A stretch of 32,000 nucleotides of DNA from Candidatus Electrothrix yaqonensis. GTDB lineage: Bacteria; Desulfobacterota; Desulfobulbia; Desulfobulbales; Desulfobulbaceae. Under the pieces are notes generated by a model. It ran no database searches. It was not told where the DNA came from and saw nothing but the letters and a program-made list of their open reading frames with translations. Where the stretch lies: the NCBI GenBank assembly GCA_047651235.1, contig CP178758.1:3030001-3062000 (forward strand), given 5' to 3'. This document shows, piece by piece, positions 6,107-31,017 of this stretch; the stretch's first letter is position 1; every line of letters begins with the position of its first letter. The translations under genes and the position numbers were made by a program.

Positions 6107-6298
6107 ATGAACAACCAGGAGCGCACCTGTCTGCTGGAAGATGAACTCCTTATCCTGCGGCATTCCGGTGAGCTGCCGGAAATTGCCTACCATTCCTCGC
6201 TGTATTATCTCACTGCTGACAAGGACGGCCCCGGTCTGGTCCTGACTGAAGATGAACAGAAAATGCTGCAGGAGGCTGCTATAGCTGGAGCAACATAG
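6107..6298 (+). CDS. hypothetical small ORF whose 3' end runs into MITE copy 1 (probably a truncated gene)
   Basis: A 63-aa ORF. Its last codons and stop lie inside the repeat element that starts at 6281. No family recognised. Confidence 0.3.
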   Translation: MNNQERTCLLEDELLILRHSGELPEIAYHSSLYYLTADKDGPGLVLTEDEQKMLQEAAIAGAT

Positions 6299-6395
6299 CA
6301 ACATAATTTGAATATGCCCACAAGAGGCATAAGTTTTGCCTTCACGCCTTTCAGATAGCTGATCCTGTATTCAGTTTATACTGCTCCAGCTATAT
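6281..6395. mobile_element. MITE-like element, copy 1 (115 bp, carries an 8-bp internal duplication AGCAACAT)
   Basis: Terminal inverted repeats are TAGCTGGAGCA ... TGCTCCAGCTA, flanked on both sides by TA. It is near-identical to 13308-13414. Confidence 0.6.
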
Positions 6396-6710
6396 GTCAA
6401 GCCCCGACTGATTGTATACCTGTTTTTTAAATAAATCGGGATGCGTTTTCCGCCAATTTTTCAGAGCCTCAACCGGCGTGATATGGCCGAGATTTTTCTG
6501 CGGAATATGGTGATTATAAATACGGAGATACTGCAGCAGTATTTCCTTAAGCTGACGGGACGATTCAAACTTTGTCTGCTGAACAACTTCTTTAATTCTG
6601 CCGTTGAAGCGCTCGACCATGCCGTTTGTCTGCGGTCTGCGCGGTTTTATCAGACGGTGCTCAATGCCGTTCTCCCCGCATTTCCGATCAAATGCGTGGT
6701 TTCGTATCAA
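6390..6710 (-). pseudogene. IS481/IS3-type DDE (rve) transposase, C-terminal fragment only
   Basis: HRLIKPRRPQTNGMVERFNGRIKE...YNHHIPQKNLGHITPVEALKNW is the C-terminal third of an integrase-core transposase. The N-terminal two thirds are missing. The upstream side is replaced by a tandem repeat array, and the stop codon lies inside the MITE TIR. Confidence 0.75.
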
Positions 6711-6800
6711 TCAAATGCATGCATTCGTTCCGATCAAATGCATGGTTTCGATCTAATCAAATGCGTGCATTCGTTTCGATCAAATGCATGCAGTTATATG
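6681..6800. repeat. tandem array of 5 units of 21-25 bp with core ATCAAATGC(A/G)TG, organised as a ~46-bp higher-order repeat
   Basis: Read directly as CGATCAAATGCGTGGTTTCGTA / TCAATCAAATGCATGCATTCGTTC / CGATCAAATGCATGGTTTCGA / TCTAATCAAATGCGTGCATTCGTTT / CGATCAAATGCATGCAG. Related half-sites (ACGAATG, GTTTCGTTCCGATC) follow up to about 6830. Confidence 0.8.
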
Positions 6801-7083
6801 TTACGAATGTGGGGTTTCGTTCCGATCCTCAGCATGCCTTGCATGAAAGGGGCATGGACAGGTGGGCTTGTATCCCTTGCCCCAAATGGGGAATATATAA
6901 TTAGGGCAGGGTAACACCTTGTGCCGCTTTTGCCTCCTGTTTTTGTCCCGTAGCTCTGCAAAACCCTTGCATTTTAAGAAAAAAGCTGGCAAGTTTTTGC
7001 CTAAACATTTCATCAACGGGTTGCACTCAACCCATAACCGTAACTTCTCTTGGAGGAAAACCAATGATTACTACACCAAAGAA

Positions 7084-8214
7084 ATGTTCCATTCTTCTCT
7101 TCTCTTCTCTTGCTCTTTATTCCTTCTGTTCCAGGTTAATGTCGGCTATACAGCGGCACTTCAGAAGATATCATCAAATCATGTTGTGAAAAGCGACGGA
7201 TCGCTCTGGGCATGGGGAGACAACGATTGGGGCGAGCTTGGTGACGGTTCAACTACTGACAGGCCGACTCCCGTCCGGATTGGAAAAGACAGCGACTGGA
7301 CAGTTATCACGACAGGATCGGCTCATCACAGTCTTGCTCTGAAGAACGACGGATCGCTCTGGGCATGGGGACTCAACAAACACGGCGAGATCGGTGACGG
7401 TTCAACAGATGCAAGACATTCTCCCGTCCGGATCGGAAAAGACAGTGACTGGGCAGCCGTCGCAGCAGGATCATATTGCAGTCTTGCCCTGAAAAGCGAT
7501 GGCTCGCTCTGGGCATGGGGACTCAACTATAACGGCCAGCTTGGTGACGGTTCAACAGATGCAAGACATTCCCCTGTCCGGATAGGAAAAGACAATGACT
7601 GGACAGCTATCTCGGCAGGGAGTGGTCACAGCCTTGCCCTGAAAAAAGATGGATCACTCTGGGCATGGGGACACAACTCTGGCGGCCAGCTCGGTGACGG
7701 TTCACAAACTCATAGACATTCTCCTGTCCGGATTGATGAAGGCAGTGACTGGACAGCTGTCTCGGCAGGAGAGTATCACAGTCTTGCCCTGAAAAAAGAT
7801 GGGTCGCTCTGGGCATGGGGGGACAACGGGGCCGGCCGGATCGGTGACCAAGCTATGGGGCTTACCAATCGTTCTCCTATCCGGATCGGGAAAGACAGTG
7901 ACTGGGCAGCTATCTCAGCAGGCTACGAGCACAACCTTGCCCTGAAAAAAGATGGGTCGCTCTGGGCATGGGGAGGACGCAACGAGCACGGTGAGATCGG
8001 TGACGGTTCAACTACGAAGAGACATTCCCCTGTCCGGATCGGAGAAGACAGTGACTGGGCAGCTATCTCGGCAGGGAGTAGTCACAGCCTTGCCCTGAAG
8101 AAAGATGGATCGCTCTGGGCATGGGGCCGCGACTGGTTCGGTGATGAAGTGTACGGTGAAGCGGCACGAACAGAGAGACATTCCCCCGTCCGGATCGGTG
8201 AAAAGAGTGAATAG
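7084..8214 (+). CDS. secreted RCC1-repeat (beta-propeller) protein, 7 repeats
   Basis: There are seven units of the type [35 protein letters not shown]. The hydrophobic N-terminus is [25 protein letters not shown]. The track ORF begins at 6919, but that part looks non-coding. See the finding on the alternative start at 7064. Confidence 0.85.
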
Positions 8215-9031: not shown

Positions 9032-9314
9032 CTATTCCGCCTTTCCGCCCTGAGCTTCCAAATGATACCTTACCGTATCGTAAATATTTTTTGCAAAATC
9101 ATAAAATTGCTTCACCTGTTCCGAAGTCGGTCTGCCTTCGGGCAAAAAACCGAAAGCTCCGGGATAACGGGATTCAATATACAAACGCTTTCTCGACACA
9201 CTGCTGCGCATGAAAACTCGCAGCCCCGGTCGCAACTCCGCTCTGTAGCAGAGATTCGGCGGCGCATAGGTCTTCCTCGCACGCCTGAAGCCAAGCGGAG
9301 ACGGAGAGTTTCAT
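9032..9314 (-). pseudogene. HEPN-domain toxin partner of MNT, frameshifted and internally deleted
   Basis: The N-terminal piece (ATG 9314, overlapping the MNT stop as ATGA) translates MKLSVSAWLQACEEDLCAAESLLQSGVATGAASFHAQQCVEKAFVY then stops near 9174. The C-terminal piece is in another frame (track ORF 9032..9235), ..IESRYPGAFGFLPEGRPTSEQVKQFYDFAKNIYDTV. The total span of 95 codons is shorter than typical HEPN partners. Confidence 0.7.
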
Positions 9315-9712
9315 ATCAGAATTTTTCCTTTTTCCAGCACTTCTCTGGTGAATGAATTATCCGCTTGAACAAAATTATCCCATTCGCGCCTCGTATAGAC
9401 AATCAAGTCCATAGGAACCTTACGTTTTAAAAACTTGAAATATTTTTTCACAAAGGAATAATTTTCAATTCTTTCGTCAAAACTCCTCGGAACATCGTCT
9501 CTGTCCAGCACTACGATTAAATCTATATCGCTGTCGTCACCTACTTTTCCGTATGCATATGATCCGAACAGCACAGCTTTATACGGCTTCAGCTCGGTCA
9601 GAATATTTTTCAACTCAGTCAGGTAACTCTGTAGCATTTGCTTTTCCGCTTTCATATCAATATGCTTTACGCCTCCCTCAACGTCGCCTGCAATGAGATA
9701 ATGACAACTCAA
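9311..9712 (-). CDS. nucleotidyltransferase-domain protein (MNT-type antitoxin of MNT/HEPN modules)
   Basis: LFGSYAYGKVGDDSDIDLIVVLD is the GS-x9-D-x-D minimal nucleotidyltransferase motif. An alternative start is MKAEKQML at 9655. Confidence 0.85.
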   Translation of the reverse strand: MSCHYLIAGDVEGGVKHIDMKAEKQMLQSYLTELKNILTELKPYKAVLFGSYAYGKVGDDSDIDLIVVLDRDDVPRSFDERIENYSFVKKYFKFLKRKVPMDLIVYTRREWDNFVQADNSFTREVLEKGKILI

Positions 9713-10280: not shown

Positions 10281-10388
10281 TTTAAAAAAAGAATCAGCAG
10301 CGACCTATTGGATAGTACAGGTGATCAATTCTTCCTGACCAGCTCTCCTGCCGACCCGTATCATCCGTTATCGCGGTGTCGGGGTACG

Positions 10389-10492
10389 GTCATAACCCAG
10401 GGCGCCCCGGAGTGTCATTGTGACATTATGACTCTGGCAAATGGTTCGGATTCACTGTCATAACCCAGGGCGCCCCGGAGTGTCATTGTGAC
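10389..10492 (-). CRISPR. mini-CRISPR array: 2 identical 36-nt repeats and one 32-nt spacer
   Basis: The repeat (minus sense) GTCACAATGACACTCCGGGGCGCCCTGGGTTATGAC lies at 10457-10492 and 10389-10424. The spacer AGTGAATCCGAACCATTTGCCAGAGTCATAAT lies at 10425-10456. The array is immediately downstream of a promoter-containing 40-bp leader. A third, degenerate repeat lies at 11942-11978 next to a RAMP/Cas6-like gene end. Confidence 0.6.
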
Positions 10493-10532
10493 CCTGCCTT
10501 TTTTTATACCCGTAAATTCAGTTCCCTGTCAA
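10493..10532 (-). promoter_or_regulatory. CRISPR leader-promoter, copy A
   Basis: Minus strand reads TTGACA (10532-10527), an 18-bp spacer, then TATAAA (10508-10503). The first repeat begins about 10 nt after the -10 box. It is 39/40 identical to 11979-12018. Confidence 0.55.
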
Positions 10533-10879: not shown

Positions 10880-11137
10880 CTACAGCCTGTAAATTTCTTT
10901 GCGATGACCGACAGCGACAACCAGCACACTGATATTCCCGTCGTTTATTTCGTAGATCACTCGATATGAGCCAATTCGGATACGCCAAGCCGGACGACCA
11001 GACATTTTTTTGCTGCCCGCAGGACGCGGTTGTTTAGCAAGTGATGCGATAACAGTTATGATACGAGATTGGTCTTTCCGATCAATCTTGCGAAGCTGTT
11101 TCTGAGCAGAGCGCAGGATCTCAACAGAATATGTCAT
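10880..11137 (-). CDS. type II toxin, RelE/ParE superfamily
   Basis: 85 aa, MTYSVEILRSAQKQLRKIDRKDQSRIITVIASLAKQPRPAGSKKMSGRPAWRIRIGSYRVIYEINDGNISVLVVAVGHRKEIY. It shows the typical RelE/ParE layout and a 4-nt overlap with the upstream antitoxin. Confidence 0.85.
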   Translation of the reverse strand: MTYSVEILRSAQKQLRKIDRKDQSRIITVIASLAKQPRPAGSKKMSGRPAWRIRIGSYRVIYEINDGNISVLVVAVGHRKEIYRL

Positions 11138-11340
11138 GCATCATATTCCGCCTGAATTTCACGGATTGCCTGCTCAAAAGGGATACTTTTTTGTGACCCT
11201 GCTTTTGCCTTGTCATATGCACGGATATCATCAAGCTCTTCAAGCTCCGCAAGCACTTTCTCCCAGTCTGAAAAAGGCAGAAGCACTGCCTTTGGCTGTT
11301 TTTTACTGTCTATTACGTATTCCGGACGAATGGTAAGCAT
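11134..11340 (-). CDS. type II antitoxin (Phd/YefM-like)
   Basis: Start at ATG 11340 with GGAGGA 7 nt upstream. MLTIRPEYVIDSKKQPKAVLLPFSDWEKVLAELEELDDIRAYDKAKAG is a typical antitoxin N-terminal pattern. The track ORF 11134..11394 has a spurious N-terminal extension. Confidence 0.8.
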   Translation of the reverse strand: MLTIRPEYVIDSKKQPKAVLLPFSDWEKVLAELEELDDIRAYDKAKAGSQKSIPFEQAIREIQAEYDA

Positions 11341-11696
11341 AAAATGTTCCTCCATTGTTTCGGGGCACCTTGTCCAAGCCTGCCTTGGAACCACAAGGCA
11401 ATAAACTTACTTATACACGGAAGATCAGTATATAGCTGGAGCAGAACGATAACTTCACCTTCTGCGTCGGTTTCCGGTTCAAGCGAAAAAACAATCCGGC
11501 AATCGTAACCGCAGCTGCACGCCCGGAGTCCTTCAAGAATGCCGCTTAACTTATGCGTACCCAGTGATGCGGCAAAAATATCCTCCTGCATCTGCAGCAG
11601 GGTATTCTCAATGTGTTTCTGCAGCTTTGCATTACGCCGGACAAACTTACGAAAAGCCCGTTTGAACTTCGGGGTCAGAATCAGTTTTCGCCGCAT
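11313..11696 (-). pseudogene. RelE/YafQ-like mRNA-interferase toxin with a replaced C-terminus (probably inactivated)
   Basis: MRRKLILTPKFKRAFRKFVRRNAKLQKHIENTLLQMQEDIFAASLGTHKLSGILEGLRACSCGYDCRIVFSLEP...GEVIVLL is family-typical. After VIVLLQ the ORF runs through a solo MITE TIR (11431-11443) into unrelated sequence and overlaps the next antitoxin gene. Confidence 0.6.
11431..11443. repeat. solo copy of the MITE terminal inverted repeat (TATAGCTGGAGCA)
   Basis: An exact 13-nt match to the left ends of the MITE copies at 6279-6292 and 13306-13319. No adjacent MITE body is present. Confidence 0.5.
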
Positions 11697-11701
11697 GATT
11701 A

Positions 11702-11923
11702 TTAATCCGACGACGAGTCCTGAAGTTCCGCAATAACACTCTGTGCTGACCTGGCCTCAAATTGTCCGGCACGAAAATCTGCTAAAGATTTCCCGGTGTC
11801 ACGGGCAATTTCCTGACGGCGCGCTTCAATATGCCAACTGCGGATCAGATCGACGAGCATCTCCTGCTGTTCAATCGGAAATTTTCTGGCAATCTCGACT
11901 ACCTGCTCAAAAGTCATACTCAT
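11702..11923 (-). CDS. putative antitoxin of the RelE/YafQ-like toxin
   Basis: A 73-aa ORF ending 6 nt upstream of the toxin ATG. The RBS AAGGGGA lies 7 nt before ATG 11923. The protein is helical and charged (MSMTFEQVVEIARKFPIEQQEMLVDLIRSW...). Assignment is by position. Confidence 0.6.
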   Translation of the reverse strand: MSMTFEQVVEIARKFPIEQQEMLVDLIRSWHIEARRQEIARDTGKSLADFRAGQFEARSAQSVIAELQDSSSD

Positions 11924-11941
11924 AGAGACTGTCCCCTTTTA

Positions 11942-11978
11942 ATTATAACCCAGGGCCGCCCCGGAGTGTCATTGTGAC
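11942..11978 (-). CRISPR. solitary degenerate CRISPR repeat
   Basis: Minus sense GTCACAATGACACTCCGGGGCGGCCCTGGGTTATAAT. Compared with the array repeat it has one inserted C, and the last 3 nt change from GAC to AAT. Confidence 0.5.
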
Positions 11979-12018
11979 TCTGCCTTTTTTTATACCCGTA
12001 AATTCAGTTCCCTGTCAA
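11979..12018 (-). promoter_or_regulatory. CRISPR leader-promoter, copy B
   Basis: Same TTGACA-18 bp-TATAAA block as copy A. The TGA stop of the RAMP/Cas6-like fragment (12017-12015) is embedded in the -35 hexamer. Confidence 0.5.
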
Positions 12019-12191: not shown

Positions 12192-12944
12192 CAGGGCTGT
12201 TCAATTCTATAAGAGCTTGTATTTTCAAGACGTATGCAGTAATTGATACAGAAAAACTTTACACGAGGATTCTGCATGCTGTTTTTTTGCTGAACACAAT
12301 CAAAGATCATCGACGCGGGCAGGGCCGGCGATATGAGCTTACGCATATTCTTCTGTTTTCGATCATGGCGATCCTGAGCGGTTCGGATTCTTATCGCAAA
12401 AATCTGTTCGTTGATGCGCATCGTGAAAGGCTCAATGAATATTTCGGCCTGGACTGGAAAAAAGCTCCTGCATATACAACGATCCGCACTGTCATTCTGA
12501 ATACTTCCGGTTCGGAACTTGAGCGGATTTTCAGGGAGCACGGCAAAGCTCTCGCGGAAGAGGAACCGGACGGAGAATTTATTCATTGCGACGGCAAAAC
12601 TCTCCGGGGAAGTTTCGATAACATGAAGGATATTAATCAGCTTCAGATATTGAGTGCTTTTGCTGGCGACCGCGCCGTCGTTCTCGGCCATGAAGAAATC
12701 AGGGAGAAAAGCAATGAAATCCCGGCGGCGCGGAAACTGATGAAAGAACTCGGTTTATCCGACCGCATTTGACCGCTCCCGAATTCGTTGCAATCCGCAC
12801 ATATTTGCGAAACTGAGAAGCTTCGCTCTCAATATTCTTCGTAAGAACAAGGTGAAAAATGTCAGCCGGGAGCTTTTCAGGAACTGTATGGATATAAATC
12901 GTCTGTTTGATTACGCCGGGATTTTCTAGAATTGAACAGCCCTG
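12192..12944 (+). mobile_element. ISAs1-family insertion sequence, internally deleted derivative (753 bp)
   Basis: Perfect 18-bp inverted repeats CAGGGCTGTTCAATTCTA (12192-12209) and TAGAATTGAACAGCCCTG (12927-12944). The transposase N-terminus is at 12287-12772 (DHRRGQGRRYELTHILLFSIMAILSGSDSYR..). The C-terminal tail is in another frame at 12771-12929 (DRSRIRCNPHIFAKLRSFALNILRKN..). The DDE core is missing and no target-site duplication is seen. Confidence 0.8.
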
Positions 12945-13261: not shown

Positions 13262-13307
13262 GCTGCATCCAGGCAGCTCTATGGTTCATCAGACTGATTC
13301 CTCCGGT

Positions 13308-13414
13308 ATAGCTGGAGCAACATAATTTGAATATGCCCACAAGAGGCATAAGTTTTGCCTTCACGCCTTTCAGATAGCTGATCCTGTATTCAGTTTATAC
13401 TGCTCCAGCTATAT
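13308..13414. mobile_element. MITE-like element, copy 2 (107 bp)
   Basis: Same TIRs and TA flanks as copy 1, same orientation, identical except for the 8-bp duplication in copy 1. Confidence 0.6.
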
Positions 13415-13473
13415 CTGACAGTTGCCGGTTTTCAGGAGGTGTCTGTCAGATCAGATTCAAGCTACAAATAATC

Positions 13474-15474
13474 TCAATCGACTCTACAGGCTGGATTTAT
13501 GTGCTTATTCCTTAACCCCAACAAGGCAATCGTTCGATCATCATGATTACCGGGCGACCAGAAGGAAAGCCAGTCCAGAAGATTCTTTGCCGTTTCTCCC
13601 GGCGTGCCTGATAATTTTGGACGGATTTCTTCAGCCCAGAATCTGTCCCAGCGCTCAGGCTGCTGTAAATTATGATCCGTCTCAAAAATCGGATCCGTGA
13701 TACCGTCGGTCAGGAGAAACAGGGCGGTCATGGAATCCACGCAGGTAAAAGAGATCCGCCGCATAATATCTTCCCCGTCATTGGCCTCCGGATCGAGAAA
13801 ACGGGTCTGTCCGGCATATTCACCGCTGTCCGGCCGGCCCAGCAGCCTGACGTCTCCGTTTTCTCCCTCCTGCCCCTCCTGATACAGGGCTATGCCGCCA
13901 TCGCCGATCCAGTAACCGACAAGGAAATGGCGGCCCTGAATTTCCTTATGGGCAGCCAGCAGCAGGGTAGCGTAAAAATCCCGGAACCGGCACTGTTCTT
14001 TTTTGGCTTTCTGGTGAATGGTGTTGATGGCCTGATAAATCGCCTGGCTGAAGACAGAGTAGAGCACCTGCCGCAACTGCCCCTCTGTCCGGTCTGATTG
14101 TTCCTCATTCCAGGCCGACAGCGCATCAGCAAGGGCATCCTTCTGTTCAGTTAATTTTTCCGCAAGGACCGCTGTCGAGGTTCTGACGGCCAGCCTGGAA
14201 CCCTCTCTGGAATACTGACTGCTGCCTGCGCCGTCAGACACGGCCAGAATATGCCATTGGTCGGGATGTTCACTAAGCAGCATAAAATCGTCATCCCGGC
14301 ATTTGCCTTCGTGGGCATGGGATCGTCCCCGTTTACTGGCAGCAACCAGCCTCCAGATGCCGTGTCCAGCCCTTTCCTCAGCCGCTTCATCCGGTTTCCA
14401 GAACATCACACCTTGATCCGAGGGGATATCTTTCCACAAGGACTTGGGATCATGATTGACGACAAAATCGAAATGGCTCACTCCGCTGCCGCCGGAGCTC
14501 AGAATACAGGTCACCTTTACGCTGAATTCTCCGGGCGTGGAAGGCATTCCCTCGACGCGCTGCGTTTCCGGATCATAACAGATCCCTGTTGCTTCCAGTC
14601 CTTCAATTTTGGTGATTTTCAGGACCTCGCCGCCCGCAATAGACAGCTCTTCAGAATACGGGCTGTTGACCATTGCGTTGGGGAGTTTAAACTGCACAAT
14701 CGATGGATCAATATCTGGTTGCATGGTCGTGCTCTGCGGGGGGAGATGGATGCCAGGATCAGCGGAATGCGTTCCCTGTTCCTCCTGTTCCTGATTATTT
14801 TCCGGAATAGGCGGCGGCTCTGTTGCTTCAGGCGGCGATAGAGTATGCTGCGTAGCATCTTCCGGCACCGGCAGAGCAGTATCTGTCCCTTCCTCGGTCG
14901 CATCAATATCACCGCTTACAGCCTCCGGCGGCTCTGCGCAGTCAGTTCCTTCGACCTCTTCTTTCTGCTCTACCTTTTCAGCATGTTCTGTTTCCGCAGA
15001 TTCAGCAGGTTCCTCAACGGTTTCTTCGTTGATACTCAGGTCTTCCTGAGGCGGCATATCCGTTTCCTCGCTCTCCTGCGCAACCTGGTCATCGTCTACC
15101 AGAGCACTGTCATCGAGAGGGGGATCGTTTTTTTCTTCCGCATCATCTGTTTCCGCAGCTTCCACAGATAACTCTTCAGGAGCTTTCTCTTTGTTCGAGG
15201 TGTCCTGGGAGGACGCCGCCCTGTCCTCTGCTTCCTGAAAATCCGCCAGCAGCTCCTCCTCAATGCTTCTTTTGGCTGCAGAGATCACATTATCCTTTGG
15301 TGCAGTCCGATATTTTTTCCACATATACCAATGCTGCAGAAGTTCATCTGAAAAAGAGTTCAGTGCCTCAACAACGGCAGTGGTTTCCAGAAACTGGTCC
15401 AGCTCCTCCTCTGTCAGCGCCTGCCCGTTCAGGATGTTCCGGCAGGCGGCCCGTAACGAGGTGTGCTCTTTCAT
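13474..15474 (-). CDS. PP2C-family protein phosphatase with N-terminal helical region, ~170-aa acidic linker and an Ig-like (He_PIG-type) domain
   Basis: The C-terminal half WRLVAASKRGRSHAHEGKCRDDDFML...WHILAVSDGAGSSQYSREGSRLAV...YWIGDGGIALY...LLTDGITDP fits PP2C (PP2C_2-type) motifs. KLPNAMVNSPYSEELSIAGGEVLKITKIEGLEATGICYDPETQRVEGMPSTPGEFSVKVT fits the putative-Ig repeat. The start ATG overlaps the vWA stop (ATGA). Confidence 0.85.
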   Translation of the reverse strand: MKEHTSLRAACRNILNGQALTEEELDQFLETTAVVEALNSFSDELLQHWYMWKKYRTAPKDNVISAAKRSIEEELLADFQEAEDRAASSQDTSNKEKAPEELSVEAAETDDAEEKNDPPLDDSALVDDDQVAQESEETDMPPQEDLSINEETVEEPAESAETEHAEKVEQKEEVEGTDCAEPPEAVSGDIDATEEGTDTALPVPEDATQHTLSPPEATEPPPIPENNQEQEEQGTHSADPGIHLPPQSTTMQPDIDPSIVQFKLPNAMVNSPYSEELSIAGGEVLKITKIEGLEATGICYDPETQRVEGMPSTPGEFSVKVTCILSSGGSGVSHFDFVVNHDPKSLWKDIPSDQGVMFWKPDEAAEERAGHGIWRLVAASKRGRSHAHEGKCRDDDFMLLSEHPDQWHILAVSDGAGSSQYSREGSRLAVRTSTAVLAEKLTEQKDALADALSAWNEEQSDRTEGQLRQVLYSVFSQAIYQAINTIHQKAKKEQCRFRDFYATLLLAAHKEIQGRHFLVGYWIGDGGIALYQEGQEGENGDVRLLGRPDSGEYAGQTRFLDPEANDGEDIMRRISFTCVDSMTALFLLTDGITDPIFETDHNLQQPERWDRFWAEEIRPKLSGTPGETAKNLLDWLSFWSPGNHDDRTIALLGLRNKHINPACRVD

Positions 15475-16538
15475 CCTAAAGACCTCACAATATCGAATTG
15501 TTCATTGTTCTCCACCGGCACCAGAGTCAGTTGCTGCCTGCACCAGGGGCATTGGGCCGTGGTTGCGATCCCATCCACACAGAAGAGCCGACCGCAGGAA
15601 CACAGGGCCATTGCCGACGGATTGCCGCAGTACGGACAGCCTGCCTGTCCGAGGAGCTGCTGAAAATCGACCTTGGCCTCAATTTCGTTCACCACGGAGG
15701 ACCAGTCAAAATAGCTTTCATCCACCGGATAACAGCCGGTCATCCGGTAGCAGTATGCACCTGATCCTGTCCCTGCCTGTTGCGCTGAAAGCGCAACAGA
15801 GGCAAGCAGCACCCGCTCGTACTTGAGTAGATAGGGGGTTCCGCGCTGCTGGCAGCGGCCCGGAAAAATGGCAAAATCCTCATCCGAACCGGGATGTTCC
15901 GCAGCGGAGATCAACAGCTCGCCCGTCTTTTCCAGGGAGATGGGCAGATGCTGCTCGCCCTGCTGCTGCACCCTGACGCTCTGCGAGCGCACCGACATGG
16001 TCATCCAGTCAATAAAGCGGGAAAAATCCGCGCTGTCCTCGCCGTTATAGGTCAGTACATGATCGGCAAACTCCGATAAGGCTCCCGTGGCCGCATGGTT
16101 GCCCAGCCCGATGGCCACCAGCTGCGCCCGCCCGGCATATTTTTTCTTCCAAGTCTGCACAGCATCCCGGCAATCATCTGTGGGTTTGCCGTCAGTCATC
16201 AGATAAACAAGCGGCTTCCAGTCCCCTTTGCGCTCCGCTGTGGTGGGGTGGATCCGGGTATCGATTTCCTGCATCAGATGGGTCAATGCCTTGCCCAGGG
16301 CTGTGCCGGAACCCAACGGCAGCTTAGGCGGATAAAAAGTCGGCAGATCCACCAGCGGAACCAGGGTTTGTACCTTACCGGCAAAGGCGATGATGGATAG
16401 AAATACGGTCTCCAAGGCATGGGGGTCCCGGCGGAGTGTGGTGATGAGCTGATTCAATCCCTGTTCAAGAAATTGCAGCGGTTCGCCGACCATGGAGTCG
16501 GAGACATCAAGGACAAGAAATACAGGCAGACGGCGCAT
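15471..16538 (-). CDS. vWA-domain protein (TerY-like) with C-terminal Cys-rich zinc ribbon
   Basis: MRRLPVFLVLDVSDSMVGEPL (MIDAS DxSxS)...PLVYLMTDGKPTD is vWA/TerY-like. The C-terminus is CPYCGNPSAMALCSCGRLFCVDGIATTAQCPWC. The RBS GGAGAA lies before ATG 16538. Confidence 0.85.
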   Translation of the reverse strand: MRRLPVFLVLDVSDSMVGEPLQFLEQGLNQLITTLRRDPHALETVFLSIIAFAGKVQTLVPLVDLPTFYPPKLPLGSGTALGKALTHLMQEIDTRIHPTTAERKGDWKPLVYLMTDGKPTDDCRDAVQTWKKKYAGRAQLVAIGLGNHAATGALSEFADHVLTYNGEDSADFSRFIDWMTMSVRSQSVRVQQQGEQHLPISLEKTGELLISAAEHPGSDEDFAIFPGRCQQRGTPYLLKYERVLLASVALSAQQAGTGSGAYCYRMTGCYPVDESYFDWSSVVNEIEAKVDFQQLLGQAGCPYCGNPSAMALCSCGRLFCVDGIATTAQCPWCRQQLTLVPVENNEQFDIVRSLG

Positions 16539-16592: not shown

Positions 16593-16964
16593 TCAAAGCC
16601 GTTCTGACGGAACAGCGGCATAATTCCACTTCGGCAGAAACTCGTCGAAGTGAATTTTCATATTTTCTTTAAAACCGTCAGCCGTTTTGCGGCCTGTCTC
16701 GAAGAGGAATTCAGATTTTCCATGTGTCGTCCACCAGTTCCGAATACAGGCGCACCCGAACTCGGAGGTGTCACCGCTTGCCCCTAATGTGATATAACCG
16801 ATATTACTGTATATATCATACAGTCCATAGGCGAACCCGCCGTGTGTTTTTTCAGCACTGCGAAAAATGAGTCATCAAGGCCGACGGCGGTCTTTTTCAG
16901 ACAGGCTGCCGTAAAAATTACGCATTCGCGTTTCTATCTCAGGAGAATATGTTTTTATCTTCAT
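16593..16964 (-). pseudogene. ISAzo13-family transposase remnant (multiple deletions, frameshifts, in-frame stops)
   Basis: Minus-strand pieces are MKIKTYSPEIETRMRNFYGSLSEKDRRR.., FAVLKKHTAGSPMD (other frame), DTSEFGCACIRNWW and ..HFDEFLPKWNYAAVP. They match, in order, conserved blocks of ISAzo13-type transposases as I remember them (..DERqRRL.., ..tRGdPm.., DTaeFAv.sIRrWW, FHGEWNYtI.P). Confidence 0.45.
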
Positions 16965-17115: not shown

Positions 17116-18681
17116 TTACTTGGCATACTCAACCGCCCTGGTCTCCCGAATGACCGTCACCCGAATCTGGCCGGGATAGGTCAGCTGCTCCTCAATCGCC
17201 TTGGCAATATCACGGCTCATCAGCAGGGCATCCTCATCATATATCTTCTGGCTGTTCACAATGATACGTAGATCCCGCCCGGCCTGCACAGCATAGGATT
17301 TCTCAACCCCTTCAAAGGAATTTGCTATGTTTTCAAGATCCTCCAGGCGCTTTACATAACTCTGCAGCATTTCCTTCCGGGCGCCCGGTCGGGCACCGGA
17401 CAGCGCATCTGCCGACTGGACCAGAACATCCAGGACGCTCTGCGGCGGCAGGTCTTCATGATGGGCGCCGACCGCGTAGACAATATCGTCACGCTCTCCA
17501 TATTTTTTAACCAGATCACGGCCGATAATGGCGTGAGATCCTTCTATCTCATGGTCCACAGCCTTGCCGATATCATGCAGCAGCCCGGCCCGTTTGGCCT
17601 TCTTCACATCAAGTCCGAGTTCTGCGGCCATAACTCCGCAGAGAAAGGCCACCTCCAGGGAATGCTGAAGAATATTCTGGCCATAGCTGGTCCTGTATTT
17701 CAGGCGGCCGATCAGGTTGATCAGGTCAACATGTATGCCGTGGGCCCCGACATCAAAGGTGGCCTGCTCGCCCACCTCTTTGATCTCCACATCCAGGTCT
17801 TCGGTTACCTTGGCGACCACCTCCTCAATCCGGGCCGGATGGATCCGACCGTCGGAAATCAGCTGCACCAGGGCCTGGCGGGCAATCTCACGCCGAATCG
17901 GGTTGAAGCCGGACAGAATAACAGCCTCCGGCGTGTCATCAATAATGATATCAATCCCGGTGGCTGCCTCGATCGCCCGGATATTACGGCCTTCCCGCCC
18001 GATAATCCGACCCTTCATTTCGTCGTTGGGCAGCGGCACCATAGAGACGGTCTTGTCGGCAACATAGTCTCCAGCATACCGGGCAATGGCAAGAGCGAGA
18101 ATATTTTTTCCCTTCCGGTCAGCCTCCAGCTTCATCTCATTTTCAATGCGGCTGAGTCGCTTGGCCGCATCCATACGCGCCTCGCTCTCAATGGAGTTCA
18201 TGAGCTGCTCTTTGGCCTGTTCACGGGTTATTCCGGAAAGGTTCTCCAGCCGGTAGCGCTGCTGTTCAATAACCGAGTTCAGCTCTTCTTCCCGCCCGGC
18301 AACGAACTTTTCTTTTTCGTTTATTTTCTGTTCTCTGGAATGCAGTCCGCCTTCCCGTTTTTTCAGGTCATTCAGCTCGTCATGCACTTTATCCAGCTTG
18401 CGGTCCAGCCGGCGTTCCTCCTCCTTCAGTCCTTTTCTGGACTCCCTGACCTCGGCCTCGGCCTCTTTCTTGCTCTGATATATCTCCTCCTTGACCTGCA
18501 GCAGACTTTCTTTTTTGATCTGCTCGGCCTCCTGAATCGCATTCTCGACAATCAGACGGCCCTGACTCTCTATATCAGCCTGATTGCCCTCGATAAATTT
18601 CTTCCTGAGAATGAAACCGACAGCTCCTCCGGCCATCAGCATCACTACACATAGAAGTACTACCATTCCGCTCATCATCAT
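17116..18681 (-). CDS. rny: ribonuclease Y
   Basis: The order N-terminal TM helix, long coiled coil, KH domain ([26 protein letters not shown]) and HD domain ([12 protein letters not shown]) is diagnostic for RNase Y. Confidence 0.95.
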
Positions 18682-26110: not shown

Positions 26111-27313
26111 ATGACAATTAATCTGGTCAATAATTTTCCACAGAAAACAATCCGGCTGCCCGAAAACCTGCTGCGGCAGCACACCGCCTTTCTGCTCCGG
26201 CGTATGGGTATGAGCGGCAGATCGGTGAGCATCGTGCTCATGGATGATGCGGCAATGGCGGAATATAATCAGCAGTACCGCTCCAAATCAGGGCCGACCA
26301 ACGTGCTTTCGTTTCCGGCAGCACAGAACTCTCCTGATCTGGTCGGGATCCCTGCGGAACTGACTGCGGATGAATTGGGCGATATTCTTATTTCGGTGGA
26401 TACAGCCCGAAAAGAGGCCAAAGAAAAACAGATCTCCCTGCAGCAGCGGCTTACTGAGCTGATCATCCACGGCCTGCTCCACCTTGCAGGATATGACCAT
26501 GAAGGGTCGGAACAGGAAGCCGAGGTTATGTTCAGCATGGAAAAAAAATTGTTCTGCTCACTTCAACATATCTATTCAGAGAGAAGAAAAATGCCGAAAC
26601 TTGCCATTAATGTTGATCATATTGCTACTATCCGGCAGGCCCGTGGAGGAGCGGAGCCTGATCCGGTTCTGGCTGCCGGAATCTGCGAACTTGCCGGAGC
26701 CAAAGGCATTGTCGTGCATCTGCGGGAAGACCGGCGCCATATCCAGGACCGGGACGTCCGTCTGCTCCGGCAGACCGTAAAAACCCGGTTAAATCTGGAG
26801 ATGGCCGCGACCAAGGAGATCATCGCCGTTGCCTTGGAGGTTGTGCCGAATATGGTCACTCTGGTACCGGAAAAGAGAAAAGAACTGACCACCGAAGGCG
26901 GCTTGGACATCATCAGCAATGCAAAAAAAATCAGAAAGACGATTGAAAAAATGAGCGGGGCCGGAATCCCTGTTTCTATTTTTATTGATCCGGATATTGA
27001 GCAGATCAAGGCGGCTCTGGATGCGGGCGCGATCTATGTGGAACTCCATACCGGCCGCTACTGCGATGCGGGAAATGAAAAGGAACGGGACAGAGAGTTT
27101 CATCTGATTGAGGTGGCAGCGGAATATGCCTTTGAAGCGGGTCTGCGGGTGAATGCCGGGCACGGCCTGGACTACCGGACCACCACCAGAATCGCGGCCC
27201 TGCCCGCCATTGAGGAACTGAGCATCGGTCATGCCGTAATTGCCCGGTCCGCCTTTGTCGGCCTGGATCAGGCGGTACGGGAAATGCAGGCCTGCATCGA
27301 CAGAGCAGGATGA
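26111..27313 (+). CDS. single continuous ORF encoding YbeY endoribonuclease (aa 1-~155) followed in frame by pyridoxine 5'-phosphate synthase PdxJ (from internal ATG 26591)
   Basis: The YbeY part has GPTNVLSFPA and ELIIHGLLHLAGYDHE. The PdxJ part has MPKLAINVDHIATIRQARGGAEPDPV...HLREDRRHIQDRD...VTLVPEKRKELTTEGGLD...ELHTGRY...VNAGHGL. No stop codon separates them. PdxJ may also initiate independently at 26591, where GAGAGAAG lies upstream. Confidence 0.85.
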   Translation: MTINLVNNFPQKTIRLPENLLRQHTAFLLRRMGMSGRSVSIVLMDDAAMAEYNQQYRSKSGPTNVLSFPAAQNSPDLVGIPAELTADELGDILISVDTARKEAKEKQISLQQRLTELIIHGLLHLAGYDHEGSEQEAEVMFSMEKKLFCSLQHIYSERRKMPKLAINVDHIATIRQARGGAEPDPVLAAGICELAGAKGIVVHLREDRRHIQDRDVRLLRQTVKTRLNLEMAATKEIIAVALEVVPNMVTLVPEKRKELTTEGGLDIISNAKKIRKTIEKMSGAGIPVSIFIDPDIEQIKAALDAGAIYVELHTGRYCDAGNEKERDREFHLIEVAAEYAFEAGLRVNAGHGLDYRTTTRIAALPAIEELSIGHAVIARSAFVGLDQAVREMQACIDRAG

Positions 27314-27668: not shown

Positions 27669-27849
27669 GTTCCAAAGGCGCGCCCCTTCGGGCCACGCCT
27701 TTGGAATGCCGAGTTGACCGTACCGGCCCAACATTTGATTCCTGCGGCGCTGCGCGCCTTCGGAACCAAACGTTGGACTCGAAATTTTCCCGCAATAATC
27801 AACCGCAAGCGGCCATTATACCAGGAAAATTCCGGTCAACTCGGCATTA
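27669..27849. repeat. 181-bp structured element, copy 1 (starts exactly at the GTT of an attC R' box)
   Basis: 180/181 identical to 29192-29372. It has an 11-bp perfect hairpin (TTCCAAAGGCG/CGCCTTTGGAA). A 13-bp closing helix (GCCGAGTTGACCG/CGGTCAACTCGGC) encloses two further hairpins. Confidence 0.85.
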
Positions 27850-27888
27850 ACCAAACATAAATTTCAAACTTGAAAATTACTAACTCAG

Positions 27889-28668
27889 ATGCAAGAAAAG
27901 TTTTTACTTTACATTGACATACTTGGTTTTAGCGACCTTATCAAATCTGAGGAGCGGACAAAAGATCTGTACAAGATAATTGACTCACTCAATGTGCATA
28001 GCCATGATGTGTTTCAAACAATAGTATTTTCCGATACAATTTTGGTATATAACAAAGAAACGCATTCTGATGAAGATTCAGCAAAATACATCGTTTGGTA
28101 CGCTACTGAGTTTGCAGAAGATTTACACTTCAGGCTAATTGGTAAAGGCCTATATTTTCGGGCAGTGTTAACTTACGGTGAATTTGAGCATTATCATTTA
28201 AAAAACACGGAATGCTTTTTTGGAAAAGCCCTTGTCGATTCTTACAACAGTGAAAAGAACATTCAAACAACAGGGCTATTAATTGACAATGAGTGTCACA
28301 AATACTTGAGATTTTTTGCATCAGAAAAGTTTGACAATAACTGGCACTTTATCTATTTGGAACGTAGCTTCAAATATTTAGATGAAATGATGTTCGAGGG
28401 TTTACCCATTAGGCGTGAAGTGTTTATGGAAGGTGAAAATGTTCCATTTTTACTTGAAGCATTAGAATTCATTAAAGACATATACGGGAATATGCGTAAT
28501 CATCCTGTGCCAACTATTAGGACAAAATACCTCACAACATGGGATTTTTATCACCGAAAATATTCAGTAATTTTGGATTATTTGATAGGTAATAATTTCT
28601 CACCAGAGTCTGTATGTCCAAATTTTAATTGGGAGCCACTACTCAAAAGATTTGAGAATAAAACCTAA
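27889..28668 (+). CDS. cassette ORF 1: hypothetical protein with class III nucleotidyl-cyclase-like motif order in the N-terminal half
   Basis: FLLYIDILGFSDLI .. TIVFSDTILVY .. LYFRAVLTYGEF .. FFGKALVDSYNSEK parallels the cyclase homology domain blocks (vlFaDIvGFT / iGDavma.F / lRiGihtGpv / viG..VN.AaR). The Asn/Arg of the last block are not conserved. Motif-level inference only. Confidence 0.6.
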   Translation: MQEKFLLYIDILGFSDLIKSEERTKDLYKIIDSLNVHSHDVFQTIVFSDTILVYNKETHSDEDSAKYIVWYATEFAEDLHFRLIGKGLYFRAVLTYGEFEHYHLKNTECFFGKALVDSYNSEKNIQTTGLLIDNECHKYLRFFASEKFDNNWHFIYLERSFKYLDEMMFEGLPIRREVFMEGENVPFLLEALEFIKDIYGNMRNHPVPTIRTKYLTTWDFYHRKYSVILDYLIGNNFSPESVCPNFNWEPLLKRFENKT

Positions 28669-28671
28669 ATT

Positions 28672-28735
28672 GGTTAACCAGTCATTCCACTGGATTTCGC
28701 AAACTGCGCGAAACCCAGTGAATTCAACGTTATAA
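28672..28735 (+). other. attC recombination site 1 (64 bp)
   Basis: R'' is GGTTAAC and R' is GTTATAA. The arms CATTC[C]ACTGGATTTCGC / GCGAAACCCAGTGAATT pair with one extrahelical C. Confidence 0.65.
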
Positions 28736-28739
28736 GAAA

Positions 28740-29135
28740 ATGAAATACACGAAAAAAGAGATACGACTTTTCCGTACAATAAATCTCGTGGCGGTTGTAA
28801 TTGGATTGCTGATACTTCTGTTTTTGAGCAAAGCCGTCGGAATGGTCATCATTGGTTTATCGCTTTTCTTTTTGTTTCGACCATTTTCGGATGATGAGCG
28901 AGCTGAATTCTCAGATTTAGTCTCGGAATACAAAATCGTGAAGAAATATGAAGAAGGTCTACCTTGGGCGATTCTTCTCGTTCTTGAAGATGGAAGTGAA
29001 ACATGGAACAAAACGATACCGGGTAGTTTTTGCGCAAGAGACCCGGAAAATGACCTGACTTTCGTATTCTCAAGTGCGGAGGACGCACTCAGGCACGCAC
29101 AAGACATTTTTCCAAATGCGATTCATCGAAAATAA
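28740..29135 (+). CDS. cassette ORF 2: hypothetical protein with two N-terminal TM helices
   Basis: The 131-aa ORF has LVAVVIGLLILLFL and MVIIGLSLFFLF followed by a ~75-aa soluble tail. No family recognised. Confidence 0.6.
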   Translation: MKYTKKEIRLFRTINLVAVVIGLLILLFLSKAVGMVIIGLSLFFLFRPFSDDERAEFSDLVSEYKIVKKYEEGLPWAILLVLEDGSETWNKTIPGSFCARDPENDLTFVFSSAEDALRHAQDIFPNAIHRK

Positions 29136-29140
29136 ACTGA

Positions 29141-29198
29141 TTATAACGAATAAATGCTGCCGACTTCGCAAGCTCAGCGGCAGATTTTTGCGTTCCAA
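29141..29198 (+). other. attC recombination site 2 (58 bp)
   Basis: R'' TTATAAC is the exact complement of the preceding junction box GTTATAA. The arms AAAT[G]CTGCCG / CGGCAGATTT pair with an extrahelical G. R' is GTTCCAA. Confidence 0.65.
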
Positions 29199-29372
29199 AG
29201 GCGCGCCCCTTCGGGCCACGCCTTTGGAATGCCGAGTTGACCGTACCGGCCCAACATTTGATTCCTGCGGCGCTGCGCGCCTTCGGAACCAAACGTTGGA
29301 CTCGAAATTTTCCCGCAATAATCAACCGCAAGCGGCCATTATACCAGGAAAATTACGGTCAACTCGGCATTA
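29192..29372. repeat. 181-bp structured element, copy 2
   Basis: See copy 1. The single difference (A at 29355 versus C at 27832) falls on a position that is mismatched in the predicted helix. Confidence 0.85.
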
Positions 29373-29395
29373 TCAATACGAATGAGGAGGAATAA

Positions 29396-29731
29396 ATGTT
29401 AGTTGTTTTTAATACAGTTGGATTTCTATGGTTACTTGTTGCATTCGGGATCGCCATTGGCTTGCAAAGTGCTGGAATTATAATTGACAAAAAAGGTGAC
29501 TATTTCTTAGAAGTAATCGCTACTTCAATAATATTATTTGATTTCGCATTCAGGTTTTTGATTGGTAAGAATCGAAAATTGGAAGAAGAAGATGAATCAA
29601 AAAACGTTACAGAAGATGTATCAGGTCACTGGTTGATAGGTTCTAAGTTTGGAGGAAGTTTAATGTTCCTACCGACTTATATTGCAGCCATATTAGGATA
29701 TCTTTTTTTGGTATTTGTTGTAAAAGTATAG
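29396..29731 (+). CDS. cassette ORF 3: small membrane protein (3 TM)
   Basis: The 111-aa ORF has GAGGAGGA 5 nt upstream of the ATG. Hydrophobic segments are VGFLWLLVAFGIAIGL, VIATSIILFDFAFRFLI and LPTYIAAILGYLFLVFVV. Confidence 0.65.
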   Translation: MLVVFNTVGFLWLLVAFGIAIGLQSAGIIIDKKGDYFLEVIATSIILFDFAFRFLIGKNRKLEEEDESKNVTEDVSGHWLIGSKFGGSLMFLPTYIAAILGYLFLVFVVKV

Positions 29732-29746
29732 AGCAATAACAGTTGT

Positions 29747-29876
29747 TGATAACAATGCCCTTCCACCCGACCGGGCTTACGGCAAGGCTTTTTGAAAGGG
29801 TTACATTTAATAAATTATTTCTGCTTTTCAACCTGTTTTGGGTATTCCGCCCGTCGGGTGAAGGGCGGCGTTAGGC
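29747..29876 (+). other. attC recombination site 3 (130 bp, long type)
   Basis: R'' is TGATAAC and R' is the canonical GTTAGGC. The arms GCCCTTC[C]ACCCGAC / GTCGGGTGAAGGGC pair with one extrahelical C. Confidence 0.75.
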
Positions 29877-29882
29877 ATTCAG

Positions 29883-30581
29883 ATGAATCTATTAAAAACT
29901 TTCATATCTATGCTGGGCGTATTTACTGCGCTAATGTACTTTCATGGGTTGGCATTTTATGAAGGTTGGATGAGTTATTGGAATTTAGAGCCTGAACTAT
30001 TCCCTATATCACTCGAAGAAACTTTAGTTTATGGCTATCGGGCATACGGTCGCTTAAGTATATGGTTATTTTATATTTTAGGCTTGACCATTTCGATAAT
30101 CATTTTTTTTGCTATATTGCGATGGCTTAGGACAACCAAGATATTTGAAAAATTCACTGATAATTTAACTAGATTTTCAATATCTACTAGCATTAGAGAC
30201 TCAGTGTTATTTAAGGATAAAATAATCATATTTTTTGTAAAGTTTTTCGGAATATCGTTTCTTCTTCTAACTTGCATCTATACGATATTCTTTGTTTACC
30301 GAGAAGCGCAACTCCAAGGATACGATGCTGGATTTGATTACCATCACACATTAAGAAATATACAAAGAACAAATCCGTTGGCCATATATAAAACTAAAGA
30401 AGGTGAGTCATACGAAGGTACGGTTGTAACTTGTAGTGAGAAGTATTGTGCTCTGTTTGCATCAGGCAAGATTATCGTTTTAGCCCTATCTAGTATTGAT
30501 TTATCCACAAGAAAAGCACCTGACATTCTGAAAAGACGGCATACGAAACACAATCCGAGACGATTCATTTACTCGGATTGA
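29883..30581 (+). CDS. cassette ORF 4: membrane protein (about 4 TM) with a small C-terminal soluble domain
   Basis: A 232-aa ORF starting 7 nt after the cassette junction. No family recognised. Confidence 0.6.
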   Translation: MNLLKTFISMLGVFTALMYFHGLAFYEGWMSYWNLEPELFPISLEETLVYGYRAYGRLSIWLFYILGLTISIIIFFAILRWLRTTKIFEKFTDNLTRFSISTSIRDSVLFKDKIIIFFVKFFGISFLLLTCIYTIFFVYREAQLQGYDAGFDYHHTLRNIQRTNPLAIYKTKEGESYEGTVVTCSEKYCALFASGKIIVLALSSIDLSTRKAPDILKRRHTKHNPRRFIYSD

Positions 30582-30604
30582 CGGAATACGGATAATGGAA
30601 AGAT

Positions 30605-30662
30605 GCCTAACAAGTAAATCAAGCGGACGCGAAAAACTGTGCCGCTTATTAAAATGTTAGGT
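30605..30662 (+). other. attC recombination site 4 (58 bp)
   Basis: R'' GCCTAAC is the exact complement of the previous junction box GTTAGGC. The inner arms are AAGCGG / CCGCTT. R' is GTTAGGT. Confidence 0.75.
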
Positions 30663-30675
30663 GTAGTCACAGAGC

Positions 30676-31017
30676 ATGACAGAAGCAGATAAAGAAATTT
30701 TAGAGATTCTGAAAGAACTATTTCGTAATAAAGATAACGAACTTATCGATCCAGATGACCTTCTTAGAGAACAAATCGTAAAATGGACAATTTATTTTTC
30801 TATTTTTTCTGTTGTTACGCTGGTTCCTGCAAAAATATTTGGGCATGCAGGTAGCGATCTTATTAATGGGGTTCTATCAGGTGTAATTGGAGTGACATTC
30901 ACATTTCTCTTTGTTTATCTAAATATTAAATCGAAGAACCCAAGTTTTATATTGTACGTGTTAACTTGGTTATCAGCCGGGAAAGCTGCCCAAGCGGATT
31001 TTCCAGGAACACTTTAA
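30676..31017 (+). CDS. cassette ORF 5: small membrane protein (2-3 TM)
   Basis: The 113-aa ORF has WTIYFSIFSVVTLVPA and GVIGVTFTFLFVYL segments. No family recognised. Confidence 0.55.
   Translation: MTEADKEILEILKELFRNKDNELIDPDDLLREQIVKWTIYFSIFSVVTLVPAKIFGHAGSDLINGVLSGVIGVTFTFLFVYLNIKSKNPSFILYVLTWLSAGKAAQADFPGTL

Follow-up and report, generated by a model that had tools for sequence, protein, structure and literature searches.

The vWA-TerY-C/PP2C gene pair of Candidatus Electrothrix yaqonensis is probably a TerY-P triad that has lost its kinase

A 32-kb stretch of the genome of Candidatus Electrothrix yaqonensis (GenBank contig CP178758.1, positions 3,030,001 to 3,062,000; henceforth referred to as the window) contains two overlapping genes, one encoding a TerY-type vWA protein that ends in a TerY-C metal-binding domain and the other a PP2C-family phosphatase. 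An earlier note on this DNA, written from the sequence alone, had rightly assigned both proteins to families of the TerY-P triad, in which a Ser/Thr kinase is the third member, and had regarded the pair as either a kinase-less variant working with a kinase in trans or a triad decapitated by neighbouring rearrangements. Our analysis favours the latter: the pair is probably (we put this at roughly 0.78) a decapitated canonical TerY-P triad that was recently orphaned and now persists as an intact but functionally stranded remnant. The two genes would be the first two of a triad consisting of vWA-TerY-C, PP2C and a Ser/Thr kinase of ~500 amino acids (aa), whose native setting in cable-bacteria-like Desulfobulbales would be a chromosomal Ter (TerD/TerY/AIM24/PRTase) stress-response cluster. 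We propose that a rearrangement mediated by insertion sequences (IS) and miniature inverted-repeat transposable elements (MITEs) removed the upstream DNA to within ~20-55 nt of the vWA start codon and, on the other side, all DNA past the phosphatase stop codon, the kinase included.

The closest homologues of both window proteins belong to cable bacteria (Ca. Electrothrix and Ca. Electronema) and then to Desulfamplus. In E. aarhusensis, Electrothrix sp. Rat3, Electronema aureum and D. magnetovallimortis they lie in Ter clusters of the order TerD, TerD, TerY, (TerD), AIM24, TerY, vWA-TerY-C, PP2C, 500-aa Pkinase, PgpA, Na_Ca_ex, PRTase_2/StiP, and the kinase is present in every cable-bacterium or Desulfamplus orthologous locus of sufficient extent. 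We also surveyed loci from 80 species with 10-kb flanks and custom hidden Markov models (HMMs), taking the assessable loci as denominators: PP2C follows the vWA-TerY-C gene in 73 of 74 loci and a full-length kinase follows PP2C in 67 of 71, while a short TerY vWA gene lies directly upstream in 77 of 78 and TerD occurs within 10 kb in 65 of 80. The window holds the pair only. Neither tblastn with three orthologous kinases nor an HMM search found a kinase anywhere in its 32 kb, in agreement with the earlier note, which had seen none after the phosphatase gene, and TerD, AIM24 and the short TerY left no tblastn trace in it, whereas in the cable-bacterium relatives the pair is still preceded by TerD-TerD-TerY-AIM24-TerY and followed by kinase-PgpA-Na_Ca_ex. 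As a finding that would tell against its own proposal, the earlier note had named the presence in homologous loci of a kinase that the window has simply lost by deletion, and this is essentially what the search of homologous loci returned. The four kinase-less loci of the survey come from unrelated lineages: unrelated genes follow in an uncultured proteobacterium (L011), in Thiocystis minor (L062; two other Thiocystis genomes keep the kinase) and in a locus that has lost PP2C too (L054), and the fourth (L060) retains a kinase fragment with a permease gene downstream of it. Kinase loss of this sporadic sort looks like occasional decay, with no conserved variant, and the idea of a kinase-less variant as a kind of its own finds no support in it.

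The DNA that borders the pair consists of mobile-element debris, and the MITE and rearranged DNA downstream as well as the IS remnants on both sides were all recovered as previously described (Table 1). Upstream of the vWA gene, similarity to orthologous intergenic DNA extends over the ribosome-binding site (RBS) and ~20 nt before the ATG and is then followed by the remnant of an ISAzo13-type transposase gene, upstream of which lie the RNase Y gene and a terminator (17116-18681); judging by the sequence, the ISAzo13 remnant replaces the native upstream Ter genes. Downstream of the PP2C stop codon there is no alignment at all to the orthologous loci. The MITE found there has a second copy at ~6283-6399, with 99 nt identical (6297-6395), and the DDE_Tnp_1_assoc fragment beyond it is part of the rearranged DNA at the expected kinase site. 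The same organism is also represented by a 3203-bp short-read contig (L005) that contains these two genes only, one end lying at the border of the IS remnant and the other within the MITE; since it breaks at both borders, both flanks are repeats in that genome. In related loci, neither the MITE nor the IS remnant was matched, with the exception of this same-organism contig. More widely, housekeeping genes surround the pair in the window, with toxin-antitoxin (TA) modules and remains of IS elements lying between them.

The break lies at a junction that is also altered in related genomes. Four Electrothrix-type genomes have differing cargo inserted between PP2C and the kinase (DUF3892, a MazE-like antitoxin, GMT-wHTH and unknowns; locus positions 10982-12847 in L001, 9974-12019 in L090, 11315-11854 in L086 and 10938-11633 in L088), and two of the four cargo-bearing contigs break at this very junction. 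In most of the remaining species examined, Electronema and Desulfamplus among them, the kinase adjoins, overlaps or closely follows PP2C. On this comparative evidence, the PP2C-kinase junction is a lineage-specific hotspot of insertion or rearrangement in Electrothrix-like genomes, and the window looks like an end point of such rearrangement. Within the triad, the vWA-TerY-C/PP2C pair forms the tightly coupled core: the two genes overlap in all cable-bacterium orthologous loci examined, and the 4-nt overlap seen in the window, where the TGA stop codon and the ATG start codon share ATGA in GGATGAAAG, is identical in the orthologous loci L001, L002, L086, L088 and L090. The minus strand near 15474 reads TTAGGATGAAAGAG, the vWA stop and PP2C start being shared, and both open reading frames (ORFs) are exactly as the earlier note had given them. 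Such an ATGA overlap predicts translational coupling of the two genes.

Table 1. Features of the gene pair and its borders (window positions; AF2, AlphaFold2; pLDDT, predicted local distance difference test)
Feature	Position	Strand	Basis
ISAzo13-type transposase remnant, internally deleted	16593..16964	(-)	fragments in several frames; joined fragments match PF07592, E=9e-10
vWA gene, TerY type, with C-terminal TerY-C metal-binding domain	15471..16538	(-)	ORF, 355 aa
vWA domain with metal-ion-dependent adhesion site (MIDAS), ~aa 6-195	15954..16523	(-)	Pfam VWA; Rossmann-like alpha/beta fold in AF2; Foldseek matches to vWA / integrin I domains
TerY-C domain, aa 219-355: beta-rich part and Cys-rich zinc-ribbon-like tail	15474..15884	(-)	PF15616; invariant Cys
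ATGA stop/start overlap of vWA and PP2C genes	15471..15474	(-)	sequence
PP2C-family phosphatase gene	13474..15474	(-)	ORF, 666 aa
N-terminal helical segment, aa 4-87	15214..15465	(-)	AF2: four helices, pLDDT 75-93
Acidic disordered linker, aa 88-255	14710..15213	(-)	pLDDT <50
Ig-like (He_PIG-type) beta-sandwich, aa 256-345	14440..14709	(-)	AF2: 8 strands, aa 261-340 at pLDDT >92
PP2C catalytic domain, aa 360-655, with helical hairpin inserted at aa 420-492	13510..14397	(-)	AF2, pLDDT mostly >90
MITE, 117 bp, 32-nt terminal inverted repeats	13302..13418		repeat search; 56 nt downstream of phosphatase stop codon
Transposase fragment, DDE_Tnp_1_assoc only	12287..12772	(+)	PF13808, E=5e-16; no DDE domain after it

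The vWA protein is 72-76% identical over its full length to its Electrothrix and Electronema orthologues and matches Pfam VWA at aa 6-159 (E=2e-9) and TerY_C (PF15616) at aa 219-355 (E=4e-36; 124 bits, cut-off 28.4; profile positions 1-129 of 129). No change is seen among 21 homologues, the window protein included, in its MIDAS residues (D11-x-S13-x-S15, T79 and D116) or in eight Cys (C229, C301, C304, C313, C315, C320, C330 and C333). The Cys-rich tail that had been noticed at first reading, CPYC..CSC..C..CPWC, was confirmed at aa 301-333, but the 'unassigned middle region' said to precede it belongs to TerY-C. At ~350 aa, the combination of vWA and TerY-C occurs in >2400 database proteins, with at least 587 matching stretches confirmed in a one-genome-per-species collection, and a homologue is found in 2330 plasmid records. 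The architecture is therefore already known: the TerY-P triad of Ter gene clusters was reportedly described in 2012 by Anantharaman, Iyer and Aravind, the domain has a curated Pfam family, RefSeq names the protein 'TerY-C metal binding domain-containing protein', and it is present in thousands of genomes and plasmids. In structural terms, a sequence-profile search of the PDB with TerY-C gave a single weak match, to vWA, and vWA domains dominated the Foldseek matches of the whole vWA+TerY-C model. Against the PDB, the full model also aligned, at high root-mean-square deviation, to TFIIH subunit p44/Ssl1-type chains, in which a vWA domain is likewise followed by zinc-binding modules; this alignment may be an architectural parallel.

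The phosphatase shares 60% identity with Electrothrix orthologues across 98% of its length. It matches Pfam PP2C_2 at aa 382-636 (E=2e-37; 129 bits, cut-off 24), and the best Foldseek matches of its PP2C fold are PPM1A, PPM1B, PstP and other PP2Cs (probability 1.0). It keeps the acidic metal ligands that are invariant among its homologues (D394, D395, D414, D525, D549, D590, D594, D645 and D646). The AlphaFold2 model (mean pLDDT 77.7) reproduces the helices, the acidic linker and the beta-sandwich that had been proposed in front of the catalytic core; the He_PIG profile (PF05345), however, gave no match to the window protein at E<=1, and it matched 6 of 50 homologues at the aligned region (best E=7e-5). 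A custom HMM of the Ig-like region was run on 77 PP2C genes located after a vWA-TerY-C gene in other species and matched every one of them (77/77), and the Ig-like domain is by this measure a universal trait of triad phosphatases. With TerY-C and the Ig-like domain so widespread, the domain additions that the earlier note had called unusual are not so. The linker, taken as aa 89-255, is 167 aa long with 31% Asp plus Glu; homologues have linkers of anything between 3 and 173 aa, the window linker resembling those of the Electrothrix orthologues, and the long acidic linker is the only lineage-specific feature among the domain extras.

What the window has in common with the TerY-P triad of Ter clusters is a vWA domain fused to an eight-Cys TerY-C and followed by an overlapping PP2C gene with an Ig-like domain, the window vWA protein being 42-76% identical over its full length to the vWA-TerY-C proteins of complete triads; what it lacks is the ~500-aa Ser/Thr kinase and all the surrounding Ter genes (TerD, short TerY, AIM24, PRTase and others), in place of which it has IS/MITE debris. 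Cable-bacterium Ter clusters also have the ATGA overlap, as well as a phosphatase with the N-terminal helices and the long acidic linker. A comparable arrangement occurs on plasmids: the ter locus of the IncHI2 plasmid pC629 (NZ_CP015725.1) encodes TerW, VWA, TerD-family and TerY-C proteins, a 'PP2C family serine/threonine-protein phosphatase' and a kinase. In this IncHI2 locus the trio comes after TerW/TerY/TerX, and its vWA-TerY-C and PP2C genes have the same order and architecture as in the window; enterobacterial plasmid vWA-TerY-C proteins are 43-45% identical to the window protein over 100% of its length. The plasmid ter loci are complete (kinase present; ATP-grasp/PRTase/StiP/TerW upstream), whereas the window copy is chromosomal and truncated and has a far longer acidic linker. 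According to the hypothesis of Anantharaman et al. (2012), as relayed in PMC11090510, the intact triad would be a metal-sensing, phosphorylation-dependent switch of the Ter response, in which the MIDAS of the vWA domain and the eight-Cys TerY-C would bind metal or a partner, the kinase would phosphorylate a component and PP2C would reverse this, rendering the switch reversible. In the window the switch would be without its writer, the kinase, and the pair would therefore most likely be a stranded remnant.

Several observations weigh against regarding the pair as stranded. Neither ORF is truncated, the RBS and the coupling by ATGA are in place, the catalytic, MIDAS and Cys residues are all retained, and we found no positive sign of decay. 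Constraint was assessed by a leave-one-out count, in which a residue was scored as conserved if >=95% of the other homologues have it, instead of dN/dS (the ratio of nonsynonymous to synonymous substitution rates), because synonymous sites are saturated at 60-75% amino acid identity. By this count the window vWA protein retains 87 of 88 family-conserved residues (the sole change is V-to-I) and PP2C 58 of 58, scores that are no worse than those of kinase-linked orthologues. Such an intact pair would be expected either if the truncation is recent or if the pair is still useful, and the sequence alone fits both. Moreover, L011 and L062 keep an intact vWA-TerY-C/PP2C pair without an adjacent kinase, so that the pair may tolerate kinase loss, and a kinase or Ter cluster elsewhere in the genome has been ruled out only indirectly, via database indexing of the source contig. 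These observations would suit a functional kinase-less module that is expressed and uses its relocated cognate kinase or another Hanks-type kinase, with PP2C resetting phosphorylation and vWA-TerY-C acting as sensor or scaffold; in Electrothrix the kinase already lies 1-2 kb off behind inserted genes, and tight coupling of the kinase in cis is thus not required in this lineage. We nevertheless consider such a module unlikely. The triad kinase is highly conserved (63-90% identity among the best 120 of 4218 matches), and an orthologue cognate to the pair would be expected at ~85% identity, hence near the top of the matches; yet among those best 120 of 4218 none is indexed from the 3,738,687-bp source contig, from which both window proteins are themselves indexed. 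When ten TerD/TerZ proteins from related organisms were followed into their 90%-identity clusters, no member from the source contig appeared, although the 90% threshold limits what this check can show. A duplicated partial copy beside a complete cluster was also considered and rejected, the top matches including no second vWA-TerY-C or PP2C protein from the source contig. The upstream TerY/TerD partners are gone together with the kinase, and kinase-less loci are rare and phylogenetically scattered, Thiocystis minor standing against two kinase-bearing congeners. As for expression, transcription of the pair, if any, would start from a promoter-like sequence such as one in the upstream IS remnant, and a TTGACA-16-TATTCT site does lie upstream of the pair at 17001-16974 (-); promoter-like matches are, however, no commoner than in shuffled sequence (4 against 2.9±1.9 expected). 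More speculative still is that selection has preserved the orphan pair as a kinase-independent module of two genes, for instance with a metal- or redox-sensing vWA/Cys8 protein controlling PP2C on the substrates of unrelated kinases; were this improbable case true, L011 and L062 would be further examples of the reduced system.

The earlier note had also suggested that the pair is defence-island cargo. On a further reading, it would be all or part of a stand-alone TerY-P anti-phage system of the type of Gao et al. (2020), lying in such an island. In principle the three protein families are the same: the TerY-P anti-phage system and the Type II/III-A CoCoNuT modules follow, according to PMC11090510, a three-family logic of TerY-like vWA, PP2C and Ser/Thr kinase, and protection against phage is reported there for TerY-P-like modules (citing Gao et al. 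2020). Near the pair there are, moreover, TA modules as well as a nucleotidyltransferase of MNT type with matches to PADLOC candidate families. One of the three defining genes, the kinase, is absent from the window, however, and a rule based on three-gene content would fail. The published defence modules further differ in that their kinases carry a C-terminal OB fold, or a zinc ribbon in CoCoNuT kinases (PMC11090510), whereas Pkinase is the only Pfam match of the Ter-cluster kinases and in this family the zinc-binding Cys cluster is on the vWA protein. Orthologues of the pair are found within Ter stress clusters and not in defence islands, and a PADLOC scan of 10 neighbouring ORFs brought up no established defence system. 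PADLOC-DB v2.0.0 gave no match for either window protein, but it gave none for the canonical triad proteins of Klebsiella, Providencia and Electrothrix either, and is uninformative on this point. Overall, an anti-phage role of this kind is very improbable, and a truncated triad of a Ter cluster accounts better for the pair.

The proper annotation of the pair would accordingly be that of a truncated Ter-cluster TerY-P remnant, and not of a defence system or a new kinase-less variant. For specialists of Ter systems and of cable bacteria, its interest lies in the contrast between a coupled pair that forms the core of the triad and a kinase junction that is prone to breakage, and an intact pair that persists without its kinase is a natural test of kinase-independent roles of the phosphatase and the sensor.

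Some further features of the window were recorded. The nucleotidyltransferase mentioned above (9311-9712, minus strand; NTP_transf_2/Polbeta) matches the PADLOC candidate families PDC-S09 and PDC-M05A and is probably half of an MNT-HEPN toxin-antitoxin pair. Two toxin-antitoxin cassettes, one ParE/RelB-like (10880-11394) and one YafQ-like (11313-11923), are bracketed by a 65-nt repeat (10386-10532 and 11940-12018; 97% identity at a distance of 1486 nt, plus one additional partial copy), possibly an element of MITE-like or cassette-boundary type. A 23-nt unit repeated six times in tandem (6682-6819) stands just upstream of a gene for a 431-aa RCC1-repeat (beta-propeller) protein (6919-8214), whose internal repeats of 150-153 nt dominate the repeat scan of the window. 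A block of low GC content (~28000-31000; 35-41% GC against ~51% elsewhere), the larger ORFs of which (27889-28668 and 29883-30581 were scanned) have no Pfam or PADLOC match, is possibly a foreign insertion, and at its edge lies a 188-nt direct repeat (98%; 27669-27856 and 29192-29379). Finally, a 400-aa ORF at 26111-27313 (plus strand) combines a YbeY endoribonuclease domain (aa 26-148) with a complete PdxJ domain (aa 163-396) and looks like a YbeY-PdxJ gene fusion.

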